The notes under the pieces are model-generated. The model was not told the DNA's origin and did no database searches. It saw nothing but the letters and a program-made list of their open reading frames with translations. A stretch of DNA of 64,000 nt from Alphaproteobacteria bacterium (GTDB lineage Bacteria; Pseudomonadota; Alphaproteobacteria; RF32; CAG-239), in the NCBI GenBank assembly GCA_045577985.1, contig JAZNJJ010000024.1, forward strand, positions 82,041 to 146,040. The letters run 5' to 3'. Below, in pieces: positions 17,559 to 58,472 of the stretch. How positions within the stretch are numbered: the first letter of the stretch is position 1; every line of letters starts with the position of its first letter. The translations under genes and the position numbers were made by a program.

Positions 17559-19025
17559 TTATTGAGCTAATTTAAGTGTATCTAGGGATATCTCGTTTTG
17601 TGAAATAAAAGCAATAATAATGCATATAATTGCGTATATTTTTAACATGCTCTGTAGGTTTATATTTTTTAAGTTCGGAAAATATTTTGTAAGAAAAGTG
17701 AGTATTTTGCTTATTCCTGATGTGCAAATAATTAAGATGATTATTTGGGCAAAAATACCAATATTTTGTAATAAGTGAGATATGGGAGAAATGATTTTAG
17801 ATAGGAATGTAAATATAATGATGTATAGTGCAAGAAACATATAATAGCTATAGAATAAGATATTATTTAATTGTTTTTTCTCTAACTCTTTTTTCTGTAT
17901 ATTTTGTATGGATAATGTTTTTATATCTACTCCTCTAATTGTTTGGGGTTCTTCTTGTTGTTTTTTGAAGTTGTTAATTTTGTTTTTGAATTTTTCGTTG
18001 ATTATACATAAGCCACATCCTTTCGGGGTGAAATATGCATGATTAGCATCCTTTTTACATTGTTTAAGATGCTTTAAGATGTATTCTAATTGATTTTGCC
18101 ATTCAATTGCTGTAGGTCGTTCATTTCCCTTAACAAAGGCTCTTTCAAATAAGCTCATTGTTTTTTTATCAAAATAATCGTGCATACTATAAGGATGTGG
18201 TGCTTGATATGTGTCAGGCCATATTCCGTAAGCATAATGATTGTTTATAATCCGCTCTTGGATTGATAACATATTTTCATTTTTTCTAGGTATTCCTGAA
18301 AATGGATGTATTCCGTCATTTAATAATTTAAATATAATTACGGCAAGAGCAAATTTATCTTGTTCTTCGCCCATTTCTTCACAATTTTGTTGCATACCTT
18401 CTGGATAGATATATTCTTCACTAACGTATTCTGCAGGATATCTTGAGTGTTCTTCTCCATTGATAGAAAAGCCGTCACAGTCAAATAATGCCACAAGCAT
18501 AGTTTTTTTATATATAAATACATTGGATGGTTTTAAATCTACAACATAGTGATTACAAGCGTGTAAAGCGGCAACAACCGATGTTATGTTATACGCGGCA
18601 AAAATTCTATCAATATATTTTTCAGATAAATTCAGTTTTTTGCGAACAGCTTTTTGAATTAGATAATCTAGTGATATTGCTTCTTCTGTATCTATTTTAG
18701 GCATCAAATATCCAACACAAAATCCTTCATCATCTTCAAGTAATGCTGTCGGCCAAGCAATTTGAAAATACTCCTTTCCTTCATAAGGAATTGTTGGAAT
18801 ATTAGGTTTATTGAGGAGCATAGCTTCTAATTTTTTACGATTTGTTTCACTTTTATTTTTATCGTGAAATATTTTAGCTACACTATTTGGATGGCTATTA
18901 TCTATATATATTTTACCAGCAGCTCCTCCTTTATTTAGCAGAGATCCTAGTGTTATTTTTTCGTGATGTCCATCTGGGTATAGGGCATTATATGTAGATT
19001 CTTTGTTTGTCATAGTTTTGCCCAT
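17559..19025 (-). CDS. eukaryotic-like Ser/Thr protein kinase with a C-terminal multi-TM anchor
   Basis: Gly-rich loop GGAAGKIY, VAKIF (beta3 Lys), catalytic loop HYVVDLKPSN, a DFG-like FDCDGF, and three to four hydrophobic helices in the C-terminus. Confidence 0.75.
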   Translation of the reverse strand: MGKTMTNKESTYNALYPDGHHEKITLGSLLNKGGAAGKIYIDNSHPNSVAKIFHDKNKSETNRKKLEAMLLNKPNIPTIPYEGKEYFQIAWPTALLEDDEGFCVGYLMPKIDTEEAISLDYLIQKAVRKKLNLSEKYIDRIFAAYNITSVVAALHACNHYVVDLKPSNVFIYKKTMLVALFDCDGFSINGEEHSRYPAEYVSEEYIYPEGMQQNCEEMGEEQDKFALAVIIFKLLNDGIHPFSGIPRKNENMLSIQERIINNHYAYGIWPDTYQAPHPYSMHDYFDKKTMSLFERAFVKGNERPTAIEWQNQLEYILKHLKQCKKDANHAYFTPKGCGLCIINEKFKNKINNFKKQQEEPQTIRGVDIKTLSIQNIQKKELEKKQLNNILFYSYYMFLALYIIIFTFLSKIISPISHLLQNIGIFAQIIILIICTSGISKILTFLTKYFPNLKNINLQSMLKIYAIICIIIAFISQNEISLDTLKLAQ

Positions 19026-19777
19026 AAAATAGTTTTATCATCGGAGTTTATTCGTTGAGCCCTATTATTATTTAAGGTGTTTTTCAGAGCTTGTATTGCA
19101 TATGTTTTACGTTTTTCTTTTTCAAGATATTCAATAATAGGTATTAAGAATTTTTGATGAATTTTGAAATAATCATCAGAAAATGCAAAACTTGTTACAC
19201 CGTCTGTCATTAGCAATATTCTATTTGCGTTTTCAAAACTTTTAAATCTAAGACAATCTAGCCATTCGTCCATTGTATAAAAATAGGTTTCACAAGAAAA
19301 TGTTCCATTTTCTGGTTCAGAAACTATAAAATTATTGTACTCTCCTTTTTTGAAAGCTATTCCTGCACCATCTCCTATATGGAAAAACATTCCTTTGTTT
19401 TTATGATAAAATACACCTACAATTGTTGCCGAAAAATTAATTAAATCTAGTTGACTTTTACTTTTGTTATGTTTGTGTAAAATAAGTTTTTGACGGGCTA
19501 TTTTTATGGCATTTGATACGTCTTTTTTTATATTTTTTATATCTGAGTTAATCAATATATCACATAAGGTGTTACATATGATTTTTGCTCCGATTTTGCT
19601 ATACTTAGCGGAGCCTGCTCCATCGGATACAACAGCAACCAGTTTATTTTGATTTGTTTTAGAACAACTATAATCTTGGCAAGGTATAGATTTTGCTCTA
19701 TGCAATGCTCCTTTAACACTTGTCGATAATACTTGTATTTGCTGTTTGGGTTTCATTATTATTTCTTTTCGTTCCAA
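19010..19777 (-). CDS. PP2C-family Ser/Thr protein phosphatase
   Basis: PP2C-like metal-binding motifs VVSDGAGSA, HIGDGAG and LLMTDGV; 16-nt overlap with the kinase gene. Confidence 0.65.
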   Translation of the reverse strand: MERKEIIMKPKQQIQVLSTSVKGALHRAKSIPCQDYSCSKTNQNKLVAVVSDGAGSAKYSKIGAKIICNTLCDILINSDIKNIKKDVSNAIKIARQKLILHKHNKSKSQLDLINFSATIVGVFYHKNKGMFFHIGDGAGIAFKKGEYNNFIVSEPENGTFSCETYFYTMDEWLDCLRFKSFENANRILLMTDGVTSFAFSDDYFKIHQKFLIPIIEYLEKEKRKTYAIQALKNTLNNNRAQRINSDDKTILWAKL

Positions 19778-20442
19778 TCTGTTATATCATCAAGGTAGTG
19801 GTTGGCATTTGGGACAGCTTTTGAAATACAGGATACACTACGGCTTAACCATAAGAAAAATTCGGTAAATTTCAATCCAGTCAATCTTTTAGGTGGTAAA
19901 ATAGAAAATTTTGCTAATTTTTCTAAATTTGCACCTTGCGTTCCTATAGCGTGTATAACAACTTTTTTATTCTTTTGAGCATATATACATAATTCAGCAG
20001 AATCCTCCCAGCCATAATCTGTAGGTTCTCCATCACTAATCAAAAAAATCCAAGGACGTTTAGAAGTTATACCACAGCTGTCATATAAACATTTTTGTTC
20101 CTCTATTTTTTTTAGAGCAAGTTCCATTGCTTTTCCTAAAGGTGTTAATCCTCCTGCATCCATTTCTGGAGCTGAAAAATTCATTGCATCAGTCCAATCT
20201 GATGAAACTAATACTTCATCTTTACCAAAAGCTTTTATGATTAATATTTGAACTCTAGAGCTGGCATCAATGTCTTCTTTCAATTCTTGTTCAAGAGCCT
20301 GAAGACCTGCATTGAGTTGTTTTATTGCTTCTCCCCTCATTGATCCTGAACAATCTAGAACAAGAACACAGGGGGTTCTTTCATTAGCATTATCTGCAAA
20401 TTCTACATAAGGAATTATGTTATCTGTATCTTTTTTATTCAT
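19759..20442 (-). CDS. von Willebrand factor A (vWA) domain protein (TerY-like); start moved to the internal Met
   Basis: MIDAS motif LVLDCSGSM. The listed N-terminal extension (20443..20532) overlaps an upstream small lipoprotein ORF in another frame, and an AAGGAAA RBS sits 7 nt before the Met at 20442. Confidence 0.75.
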   Translation of the reverse strand: MNKKDTDNIIPYVEFADNANERTPCVLVLDCSGSMRGEAIKQLNAGLQALEQELKEDIDASSRVQILIIKAFGKDEVLVSSDWTDAMNFSAPEMDAGGLTPLGKAMELALKKIEEQKCLYDSCGITSKRPWIFLISDGEPTDYGWEDSAELCIYAQKNKKVVIHAIGTQGANLEKLAKFSILPPKRLTGLKFTEFFLWLSRSVSCISKAVPNANHYLDDITDWNEKK

Positions 20443-20449
20443 TTTATTT

Positions 20450-20587
20450 TCCTTAATATTTAGGGTATGAATGAGGATATTCACTACCAGGAATAGGAGA
20501 TGGTTCTGAGTATCTACCGCATGCGGATACATTTAATAAAATTCCTAGTATTAGTAATGTTACAATTATTTTATTTGTAGATTTCAT
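20450..20587 (-). CDS. small lipoprotein (45 aa), not in the supplied ORF track
   Basis: Translation MKSTNKIIVTLLILGILLNVSAC GRYSEPSPIPGSEYPHSYPKY has a signal peptide and lipobox VSAC. Its stop lies 8 nt before the vWA start. Confidence 0.4.
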
Positions 20588-57001: not shown

Positions 57002-57622
57002 ATGAAAGGAAGAAATATGACTGACTTATTAGAAAAATCAGAAACAAAAAATATAGCAAAACCAGATACAAAGAATATAGAGGATGCAGATACAAAAAAA
57101 TTAGAAATGAGTGAAAGTCGGGCTAAAAAGATTAAACATTCATATAGTGTTAAAGATGCTGAAAATTCTTTATTATTAAAAACTGAAAGAGGTGATGTTG
57201 TTATTGAGATGTTTCCTGATGTTGCACCAAACCATGTAGCAAGAATAAAGGAATTAGTGCGTCAAGGATATTATAATGGATTGAGGTTTCATAGAGTTAT
57301 TGAAGGCTTTATGGCTCAGGCTGGTTGTCCAAAAGGTGATGGAACAGGTGGAAGTGGTGTTAAACTAAAAGCAGAATTTAATCGTATTCGTCATACACGA
57401 GGAATAGTTTCTATGGCTAGAGCTATGGATCCGGATTCTGCGGATAGTCAATTTTTTATTTGTTATGCTGATTGTCCTTGGTTGGATGGGCAATATACAG
57501 TTTGGGGTGAAGTTACTGCCGGAATGGAATATATTGATATGCTGAAAAAAGGCGGTGGAGCAAGTGGAATGGTTGCAAATCCCGATATTATTGTTTCAAT
57601 GACAGTTATTGCAGATATTTAA
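57002..57622 (+). CDS. ppiB: cyclophilin-type peptidyl-prolyl cis-trans isomerase
   Basis: RFHRVIEGFMAQAGCPKGDGTGGSG motif; the N-terminus carries a K/D-rich extension of about 45 aa. Confidence 0.85.
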   Translation: MKGRNMTDLLEKSETKNIAKPDTKNIEDADTKKLEMSESRAKKIKHSYSVKDAENSLLLKTERGDVVIEMFPDVAPNHVARIKELVRQGYYNGLRFHRVIEGFMAQAGCPKGDGTGGSGVKLKAEFNRIRHTRGIVSMARAMDPDSADSQFFICYADCPWLDGQYTVWGEVTAGMEYIDMLKKGGGASGMVANPDIIVSMTVIADI

Positions 57623-57643: not shown

Positions 57644-57677
57644 ATGTCCGAAAAAAGGGATCCCTTTTTTCGGACAT
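57644..57677. terminator. perfect 34-nt palindrome ATGTCCGAAAAAAGGGATCCCTTTTTTCGGACAT (copy 1); probable ppiB terminator
   Basis: Exact self-complementarity, located 22 nt after the ppiB stop and followed by T-rich sequence. Confidence 0.55.
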
Positions 57678-57750
57678 AAATTTACTATTTTTCTTTTTTC
57701 TCATTTATCATAAATTCAATATGTTAAAAAAATATTTACGCTCTAAAAAA

Positions 57751-57782
57751 TGTCCGAAAAAAAGGATCCTTTTTTTCGGACA
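57751..57782. promoter_or_regulatory. perfect 32-nt palindrome TGTCCGAAAAAAAGGATCCTTTTTTTCGGACA (copy 2) in the pilin-like gene leader, 19 nt upstream of its start
   Basis: Second copy of the copy-1 motif with a symmetric G>A / C>T change on both arms that preserves perfect pairing; it ends 7 nt before the AGGAGA RBS. Confidence 0.5.
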
Positions 57783-57800
57783 ATGGAAAGGAGAATAATA

Positions 57801-58439
57801 ATGAATAAAATGTGTAGAACCAATATTCAATCAGGTCGTTCAATGATTGAAATGCTTGGAGTTTTAGCGATTATCGGCGTGTTATCTGTAGGTGGTATTG
57901 CAGGTTATTCAAAAGCGATGATGAAATATCGAATCAATAAAACGATTGATCAAGTTACGCAAATTTCGCAAAATGTTAGAACTTTATATGCCAGATATAA
58001 ACAATATCGTAATTTAAATGAGAGAATTGCATATAAAGCTAATTTAGCCCCAAAAGAAATGTTCTATATGGCCTCTCGTGGTGTTTACGATATGACCAAT
58101 GATTGGGGAGGATATTTTTCTGTGCATTCAACGGGTTTTGATGTAAAAAGTTTTACAGTTGAAACCTCGAATTTACCGAATGAGGCATGCATAGAACTTG
58201 CTACGCAAGATTGGGGAAACCTAGATACTACTGGATTAATTTCAGTAAGTGTTACTAATGGGGATGATTTGGATCTACCAACCGAAGATGATTTAGTAGG
58301 AAATTGTTCTGGTAAAATAGGTAATGGTTATGCTATTGCTTGTTCCGGAGGATCTGTTGTTTCCATACCTATGCCAGTTGAAGTGGCGGTTGATGCTTGT
58401 GGAAATAAGAAGGGCAATATTATGTGGATTTTTCAATAA
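57801..58439 (+). CDS. type IV pilin-like / pseudopilin-like protein (prepilin-type N-terminal cleavage/methylation domain)
   Basis: MNKMCRTNIQSG | RSMIEMLGVLAIIGVLSVGGIAGY has a short basic leader, Gly at -1, Glu at +5 and a hydrophobic helix. The C-terminus has paired Cys residues (NCSG...IACSGG, DACGN). The start is set at the Met with an AGGAGA RBS, and the listed upstream extension crosses the palindrome. Confidence 0.55.
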   Translation: MNKMCRTNIQSGRSMIEMLGVLAIIGVLSVGGIAGYSKAMMKYRINKTIDQVTQISQNVRTLYARYKQYRNLNERIAYKANLAPKEMFYMASRGVYDMTNDWGGYFSVHSTGFDVKSFTVETSNLPNEACIELATQDWGNLDTTGLISVSVTNGDDLDLPTEDDLVGNCSGKIGNGYAIACSGGSVVSIPMPVEVAVDACGNKKGNIMWIFQ

Positions 58440-58472
58440 TTAAAAATTCTTTTTTTATTGTAAATAAATTTG

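Follow-up and report, generated by a model that had tools for sequence, protein, structure and literature searches.

The window analysed here is a 64,000-nucleotide stretch (64 kb; ~31% GC) of the alphaproteobacterial contig JAZNJJ010000024.1, in which a pilin gene is preceded by two long palindromes, A (copy 1) and B (copy 2), with a spacer between them (Table 1). The encoded protein matches the Pfam families PilS_N (1.3e-11) and Bundlin (1.6e-08), which identifies it as a type IVb pilin, and it belongs to a family of more than 7,900 homologs with several copies per genome. Copy 1 reads ATGTCCGAAAAAAGGGATCCCTTTTTTCGGACAT and copy 2 reads TGTCCGAAAAAAAGGATCCTTTTTTTCGGACA; they are complementary at 17/17 and 16/16 positions, respectively, with 0 nt between the arms. 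A preliminary description of the locus had reported both dyads, a G>A difference between the copies on one arm with the matching C>T on the other, and a 7-nt interval between the end of copy 2 and the GGAG (57790-57793) of the pilin leader, all of which proved accurate. The arm 12-mer TGTCCGAAAAAA occurs exactly four times in the window, each time as an arm of copy 1 or copy 2. By our own estimate, a perfect 34-nt palindrome is expected ~4e-5 times per 64 kb at 31% GC, which excludes a chance origin. Comparison with related loci indicated that the palindromes are the two ends of a control module of ~140-155 bp, which accompanies every gene of a dispersed, multi-copy family of type IVb pilins in this lineage.

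The same succession of palindrome A, spacer, palindrome B and ribosome-binding site precedes pilin paralogs (homologs 56-71% identical, from a protein search) in at least six differing housekeeping contexts (Table 1). In every full-length upstream region, palindrome A is followed by a 73-nt AT-rich spacer, palindrome B, 17-18 nt containing AAGGAG, and then ATGAATAAAATG.... Palindrome A upstream of the paralogs in L118, L120-122 and L123-124 is identical to that of the window, while the window's leader recurs unchanged in L123 and with a single base change in L126. Both copies, together with their G/A difference, are retained on contigs that match the window at 98.8% identity. In three further paralogs (P0036, P0040 and P0055), the called N-termini encode copy B as MSEK[KR]DPFFRT, because gene callers picked upstream starts. 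The module-bearing contigs are probably paralogs within one genome, given that several of them share samples with the window's strain; the contig names point to ruminant-gut metagenomes, and the samples containing the organism are SRR32129097, SRR12529280, SRR12529306, SRR24653881 and the SAMN158300xx ruminant metagenomes. GcrA, encoded on contigs matching the window, and the names attached to distant pilin hits assign the organism to the Alphaproteobacteria. Among identical proteins on record, the window's pilin was absent at either of two alternative starts, and the neighbouring ATP-grasp protein was present. In the window itself, in-frame ATGs at 57750 (inside copy B) and 57784 lengthen the pilin open reading frame to 229 aa; both lack a ribosome-binding site and are probably annotation artefacts of the palindrome's ATG...CAT ends. 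A mini-open reading frame in copy 1, MSEKRDPFFRT*, was rejected, as its stop codon is gone in strains 98.8% identical.

The loci become homologous precisely at the left edge of A, their flanks to the left of it being unrelated, and remain so through a brief common 3' motif (AAAAATTCTTTCTTCTACAC) and a terminator (L117, L118, L119, L120, L123 and L126; window 57801-58472). The unit thus looks like a ~0.9-kb single-gene cassette set among housekeeping genes; the window's cassette lacks the usual terminator hairpin after the 3' motif. A scan of ~766 kb (the window plus related contigs) yielded no further palindromic copy except a single diverged B-like hairpin in L188, and none that lay away from a pilin gene. 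The earlier suggestion of a dispersed palindromic repeat family therefore holds insofar as the element recurs at many loci, but the copies are tied to pilin paralogs and are not randomly scattered. The palindromes are also absent from distant homologs (80 metagenome loci at ≤51% identity, plus L131 and L132), including L131, which is syntenic with L118, indicating that the module is lineage-specific. The pilin of L118 (11323-12050) adjoins ihfA and a MerR-family gene, and L131 (6717-7447) keeps the synteny of MerR, IHF alpha, alr, tatD and rnhB; with the distant species' pilin palindrome-free, this shared synteny indicates that the paralog position is older than the module.

Wider searches gave no further relatives. 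The looser pattern GTCCGAAAAAN{2,24}TTTTTCGGAC returned at least 106 unrelated hairpins from many phyla in the genome collection, with no GGATCC centre among the matches listed. No matches to the palindromes were present in viral contigs, BLAST returned nothing relevant among plasmid or phage records, and a literature search found no precedent for the palindrome sequence or for such a pilin arrangement in Alphaproteobacteria. Palindromes of the form TTGTCCGAAAAA-N7-TTTTTCGGACAA recur across Comamonadaceae (L002, L027, L049, L050 and other Burkholderiales loci), in L027 directly upstream of an AbiEi-like antitoxin/nucleotidyltransferase pair, and twin palindromes 39 nt apart occur in Mesorhizobium and Labrenzia (L057 404-469; L079 6992-7057). 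All of these palindromes, the twin ones included, are probably antitoxin operators unrelated to the pilin module. The Burkholderiales GTCCGAAAAA-N7-TTTTTCGGAC palindromes were likewise rejected as relatives, having been picked by the search pattern itself and lying upstream of an AbiEi-like antitoxin.

Six distinct 32-nt sequences were found across all palindrome copies, and positions 1-12 and 21-32 are invariant in them. The 12-nt arms TGTCCGAAAAAA/TTTTTTCGGACA are the same in every copy, the outermost 13th pair is broken in some, and variation is limited to the 8-bp centre (GGGATCCC, AGGATCCT, GGGATCCT, AGGATCCC, AGTATCCC and AGGAACCC). Thus 13/14 stem pairs are constant across the distinct copies. 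The sole variable pair, 13:20, appears as G:C, A:T, G:T and A:C (three A:C cells), its two positions vary independently, and its covariation score was equalled or beaten in 469/500 shuffles. The preliminary description had taken the symmetric arm change as a sign of selection for the hairpin or dyad over the primary sequence; these data indicate the opposite. Since pair 13:20 is uncorrelated across the family, the window's symmetric change is real but provides no evidence of selection on pairing. More generally, a symmetric compensatory change between two copies is no evidence for RNA structure until more copies have been compared.

The surrounding sequences have diverged. Three spacer classes can be told apart, which share only 55-63% identity, positions 151-600 of the paralogs' coding sequences, past the conserved N-terminus, are 61-76% identical, and the paralog terminators keep a hairpin and a T-run with entirely different stem sequences at each locus. 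Terminators under a structure-only requirement have therefore drifted in sequence, whereas the arms of A and B have not, indicating that the arms are under sequence-specific constraint.

The palindromes are also held at a constant distance. Their centres lie 106 bp apart in the window and 105 bp apart in the other classes, with offsetting internal indels that preserve the spacing; at 10.5 bp per turn, all three diverged classes span 10.0-10.1 helical turns. The spacer measures 73-74 nt in the three classes, and at every paralog 17-18 nt separate B from the ATG. All spacers lie in one orientation, with TCAATAnnTTAA placed 23 nt before B in every class. The idea that the window's spacer is an inverted form of the canonical one was rejected, as TCAATAnnTTAA lies forward at the identical 23-nt offset from B. 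The only conserved island within the spacer matches the IHF consensus WATCAANNNNTTR, perfectly in L126 and with one mismatch in the window, L118, L120 and L214, and the match in L126 stands at the same offset as the window's. This island starts at module position 69-70, and the midpoint of the palindrome centres falls at 69-69.5 (57714 versus 57713.5 in the window). The putative IHF site stands out by its conservation and placement only. Genes for IHF alpha (123.6 bits; cutoff 111) and IHF beta (114.9 bits, just under the cutoff of 115) both lie on module-bearing contigs.

The left flanks are unrelated and one upstream gene is divergent, which argues that the shared promoter lies inside the module, with A upstream of it and B downstream. 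At the place of the window's CATAAA, other spacer classes have CATAAC or CATAAT, and L126 carries TTTATA-18-CATAAT. The conserved CATAAN, combined with TTTTCA/TTTATA abutting A, is the best promoter candidate and would place A near -60 and B near +50. Inspection by eye for sigma-54 (GG-N10-GC) and CtrA (TTAA-N7-TTAA) patterns showed none conserved in the spacers. In L126 (5830-5880; also L125, L127 and L130), a divergent hexapeptide-transferase-like gene on the minus strand (CGGACATTTTAGAGGTGTAACATG) starts 15 nt left of A, and A abuts its ribosome-binding site in mirror image of the arrangement of B and the pilin gene. The module may thus drive transcription in both directions, each transcript beginning with a hairpin.

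Table 1 Features of the window around the pilin gene and genomic contexts of module-bearing paralogs.
Feature	Position	Strand	Remarks
Genes upstream			RloB-like 7TM/transglutaminase protein, RimK-related ATP-grasp ligase, cyclophilin PPIase (57002-57622)
Palindrome A (copy 1)	57644..57677	strandless	34-nt perfect dyad, 12-13-nt arms around GGGATCCC; left cassette boundary
Spacer	57678..57750	+	AT-rich, presumed pilin promoter region
Candidate -10 element CATAAA	57709..57714	+	putative, from reading the printed spacers
IHF-consensus-like site ATTCAATATGTTA	57714..57726	+	consensus WATCAANNNNTTR, 1 mismatch
Palindrome B (copy 2)	57751..57782	strandless	32-nt perfect dyad, same arms around AGGATCCT; ends 18 nt before pilin ATG
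Leader	57783..57800	+	Shine-Dalgarno AAGGAG (57788-57793)
Type IVb pilin gene	57801..58439	+	212 aa; prepilin leader MNKMCRTNIQSG/RSMIEML...; Pfam matches
3' cassette motif TTAAAAATTCTTT...	58440..58456	+	common to other paralogs
Genes downstream			SDR on opposite strand, then mraZ, rsmH
L117			further module-bearing pilin locus
L118			PBP1A, pilin, ihfA region
L119			pilin, fabZ-lpxD
L120-122			tig, pilin, uvrB
L123-124			adenine glycosylase, pilin, rplO
L125-130			hexapeptide transferase, pilin, proS

The rest of the window comprises housekeeping genes, including mreBCD, PBP2, rodA, leuS, ruvAB, dnaX, ileS and spoT. A cluster encoding a Ser/Thr protein kinase, a PP2C phosphatase and a VWA-domain protein occupies 17559-20532 on the minus strand.

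At the RNA level, hairpin energies range from -13.8 to -21.2 kcal/mol over all variants (-21.2 for copy 1 and -17.7 for copy 2), with stems of 14-15 bp, and the folding z-score of the window's palindrome region is -6. No Rfam family reached its gathering score; the best hit scored 36.8 bits against cut-offs of 120-140, and all hits were to plant miRNA-precursor models, that is, generic long hairpins. The window's copy 1 runs into AUAAAUUUAC and its copy 2 into AUGGAAAGG, neither of which is a U-run on the plus strand, and a terminator scan flagged both palindromes on the minus strand only. In 4/5 module classes, copy A stands between an upstream A-run and a downstream T6-7 stretch and resembles a bidirectional terminator; copy B lacks a U-run at every locus. 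The assignment of copy 1 as the ppiB terminator can thus be set aside: A accompanies the pilin cassette whatever lies upstream, even a divergent gene in L126, and the window has no plus-strand U-run. Nor did two of the roles suggested for copy B find support, as an attenuator would require the missing U-run, and a leader folded from copy B onward leaves the Shine-Dalgarno sequence (57788-57793) and the AUG unpaired, contrary to what is expected of a thermosensor.

These properties could nonetheless be explained at the RNA level alone, with A a bidirectional intrinsic terminator insulating the cassette, B a 5'-untranslated-region stabiliser of an abundant pilin mRNA or the site of an RNA-binding protein, and the identity of the two a legacy of duplication followed by slow stem evolution. 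Both copies fold stably, the runs flanking A are in place in most module classes as in known bidirectional intrinsic terminators, and B stops at a constant 17-18 nt before the ATG, bordering the ribosome footprint and leaving the Shine-Dalgarno sequence free, in the manner of ompA-type stabilisers, which place a stable stem-loop just upstream of the ribosome-binding site. Leader hairpins in related pilins also favour this explanation. In L188 (50-96), the leader of a pilin sharing only 40% identity with that of the window forms a B-like hairpin (AAGTGTCCCAAAAAACGACCGTTATTTGGGGACACTT), in which a symmetric, compensatory swap has turned one G:C pair into C:G and the loop is not palindromic. Another pilin lineage (L136, L140, L141, L157, L161, L163, L168 and L174) has a different leader, ~70 nt upstream of the ATG, in which ACTTCC is followed by a GC-rich covarying hairpin, a T-run and a terminal GGAAGA able to pair with ACTTCC across the Shine-Dalgarno sequence; it is a candidate attenuator or Shine-Dalgarno-sequestering leader.

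Several observations are difficult to reconcile with a purely RNA-based function. Stabilisers and terminators are constrained in structure, whereas the module is invariant in sequence and common to A and B, and its arms stay fixed although the genuine terminators of these paralogs have changed without restraint. Pair 13:20 has A:C mismatches among its plus-strand forms and covaries no better than shuffles; the window's A has lost its U-run, yet the palindrome is still perfect; and B, having no U-run, cannot attenuate. The shared sequence of A and B, the preserved 105-106-bp spacing and the central motif would also go unexplained. We therefore regard an explanation confined to RNA as doubtful. 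Binding by CsrA, with ARGGAU at the hairpin apex and GGA in the Shine-Dalgarno sequence, was set aside because it could account for copy B only; CsrA is not typical of Alphaproteobacteria.

The dimensions of the module also call site-specific recombination to mind. Upstream of the pilin gene, A and B form inverted repeats of each other at a distance of 73-74 bp, with the promoter putatively between them. The palindromes might be recombinase core sites (13-8-13 = 34 bp) around a miniature invertible or excisable promoter, giving phase variation throughout the pilin multigene family, with IHF aiding synapsis as at fimS. As in loxP and FRT, the site spans 34 bp, with a 13-bp arm, an 8-bp centre and a 13-bp arm, and all variation falls in the centre beside invariant 12-13-bp arms. 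The inner GGATCC is the same in A and B of every intact module. The module further resembles invertons such as the Bacteroides fragilis capsule loci with their global Mpi invertase and Escherichia coli fimS: the same inverted-repeat-flanked promoter stands before many paralogous surface-protein genes, and the IHF-like site at the midpoint recalls that of fimS. The module is also within the size range of invertons, more than 75% of which are shorter than 300 bases (PMC11602134).

Against such a switch, only one spacer orientation was seen at five loci, in ~15-20 assembled contigs from several samples. Unlike the repeats of invertons, each repeat here is itself palindromic, and in contrast to those of loxP and FRT, the centres GGGATCCC and AGGATCCT are fully symmetric around GGATCC and have no polarity, the other copies differing at centre positions 1 and 8 only. 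With centres symmetric or nearly so, recombination would be just as likely to remove the promoter as to invert it, and 73 bp between sites is very short. Neither the window nor the annotated flanks of the paralog loci contain a recombinase or invertase. We consider a recombination switch decidedly unlikely. Under this model, inversion would give junctions of ...TTTTTTCGGACA followed by the reverse complement of the spacer (TTTTTTAGAGCGTAAATA... in the window), and deletion would give a single palindrome followed by ATGGAAAGGAG. The metagenome contigs L109, L112, L115, L117, L119 and L129 break inside or beside the palindromes. A palindromic repeat present in many copies would be expected to break de Bruijn assemblies in this way, although population-level rearrangement would produce the same; repeat and palindrome assembly problems explain them equally well.

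A methylation-based switch offers a further parallel. In the pap system, GATC sites 102-103 bp apart are read by Lrp/PapI and Dam; the pilin module similarly has two GATC-centred inverted-repeat boxes ~105 bp apart before a pilus gene, and in both cases a regulatory box is common to several pilus loci of one genome. It differs in that the pili are type IVb rather than chaperone-usher and that the alphaproteobacterial host gives no evidence of Dam. Two variant palindromes, copy B of L125 and that of L214/L215, no longer contain GATC. GATC depletion was rejected as a hint of Dam, because GATC is no more depleted than other 4-mer palindromes. It is conceivable, if unlikely, that one factor, either a recombinase or a methylation-sensitive binder at the central GATC, recognises these loxP-sized palindromes and, with an IHF U-turn midway, flips, excises or heritably locks a ~105-bp promoter loop, so that cells would express differing subsets of ten or more pilin paralogs (phase or antigenic variation).

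E. coli BIME-1/RIP and Correia elements consist of a palindromic unit, an IHF consensus and a second palindromic unit. The module could accordingly be the relic of a selfish palindromic repeat, BIME-1/RIP-like or a Correia-like miniature inverted-repeat transposable element, that inserted ahead of an ancestral pilin gene and was duplicated together with it, any present function, such as supplying a promoter, being incidental. The likeness is anatomical: as in BIME-1/RIP (RIB) and the Correia elements of Neisseria, two palindromic or terminal inverted units surround an IHF consensus within ~100-155 bp (here, within ~140 bp), and RNA hairpins are possible. The L126 module, abutting ribosome-binding sites on both sides, is like a portable bidirectional promoter. 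A decayed copy may lie upstream of a different pilin type: L214 (37-70) and L215 (16-49) carry a B-like palindrome with the centre GGAACC and a degenerate ribosome-binding-site remnant ~105 nt upstream of a pilin (P0058) that has the leader MNHTNQSG and its own separate leader region. This element looks like a decayed or recombined module. BIME-1 and Correia elements are, however, high-copy, extragenic and gene-independent, whereas the module was found only joined to a pilin gene, with a constant interval to the start codon, with no copy elsewhere in the 64-kb window or away from pilin in the ~766 kb. There is no target-site duplication (ATAAAA stands on both sides in L118 and at no other locus), nothing was found in viral contigs, plasmids or phage records, and invariant arms beside diverging spacers argue for ongoing selection rather than decay. 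A relic origin is thus very unlikely in our judgement.

Based on the invariant arms, the constant spacing and the linkage to pilin genes, we tentatively propose, at a probability of about 0.4, that the pilin promoter lies between twin protein-recognition sites which, with an architectural bend in the intervening DNA, form a loop or switch. A and B lie upstream and downstream, respectively, of the only region able to hold a shared promoter and yet have the same sequence, so a shared factor would most simply read the DNA. The binding site of a dimeric regulator, one of the possibilities raised at the outset for copy B, is hence retained as the best reading. In the proposed mechanism, each palindrome, with its 12-13-bp arms and 8-bp centre containing GGATCC, would be the recognition site of one dimeric DNA-binding protein. 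About 10 helical turns apart, A and B would lie on the same face of the helix on either side of the promoter, with an IHF-type bend site midway, and the factor bound at A and B together with the central bend would close a small loop over the promoter. All paralogs could in this way come under one trans-acting factor, coordinately or in a variegated way. As secondary roles, copy A, with T6-7 in most modules, would insulate the cassette from upstream transcription, and copy B would be transcribed as a stable 5'-untranslated-region stem-loop just outside the ribosome-binding site. What the comparison establishes is the module with its pilin linkage, invariant arms, constant spacing and conserved central motif, whereas binding by a regulator or by IHF, looping, the site of the promoter and the sense of regulation are inferred.

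The closest analogue of the proposed twin sites is the E. coli gal repressosome, with the pap GATC-box pair and invertible promoters also close. In gal (OE and OI 113 bp apart, plus HU), as also in lac, deo and ara, two dyad sites flank the promoter at integral helical turns, with the bend site midway. The module differs from gal in that its sites are 32-34-bp perfect palindromes rather than ~16-bp operators, its bend site is IHF-like rather than of the HU type, no repressor is known for it, and it is repeated at each family member.

Several points weigh against the proposed protein sites. A perfect palindrome of 32-34 bp is long for a transcription-factor operator, perfect dyads being more typical of hairpin-forming elements. 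The symmetric swap in L188, together with the covarying hairpins of other lineages, suggests that RNA-level leader structure is common in the pilin family. Matches to WATCAANNNNTTR with ≤1 mismatch are common in AT-rich DNA (0.0016 per position and strand), and the spacers contain no strong sigma-70 consensus promoter. The 64-kb window includes no pilus machinery, recombinase or obvious cognate regulator, and the inspected share of the organism's own genome amounts to ~0.15 Mb.

If the proposed twin sites are borne out, a short DNA module would mark every member of a pilin family in poorly known gut and rumen Alphaproteobacteria, and a single factor would control which pilins are made. The palindrome could serve as a probe for read-level inversion, methylation and transcription-start mapping, and surface variation of uncultured commensals by looping, inversion or methylation would become testable in existing metagenomes.

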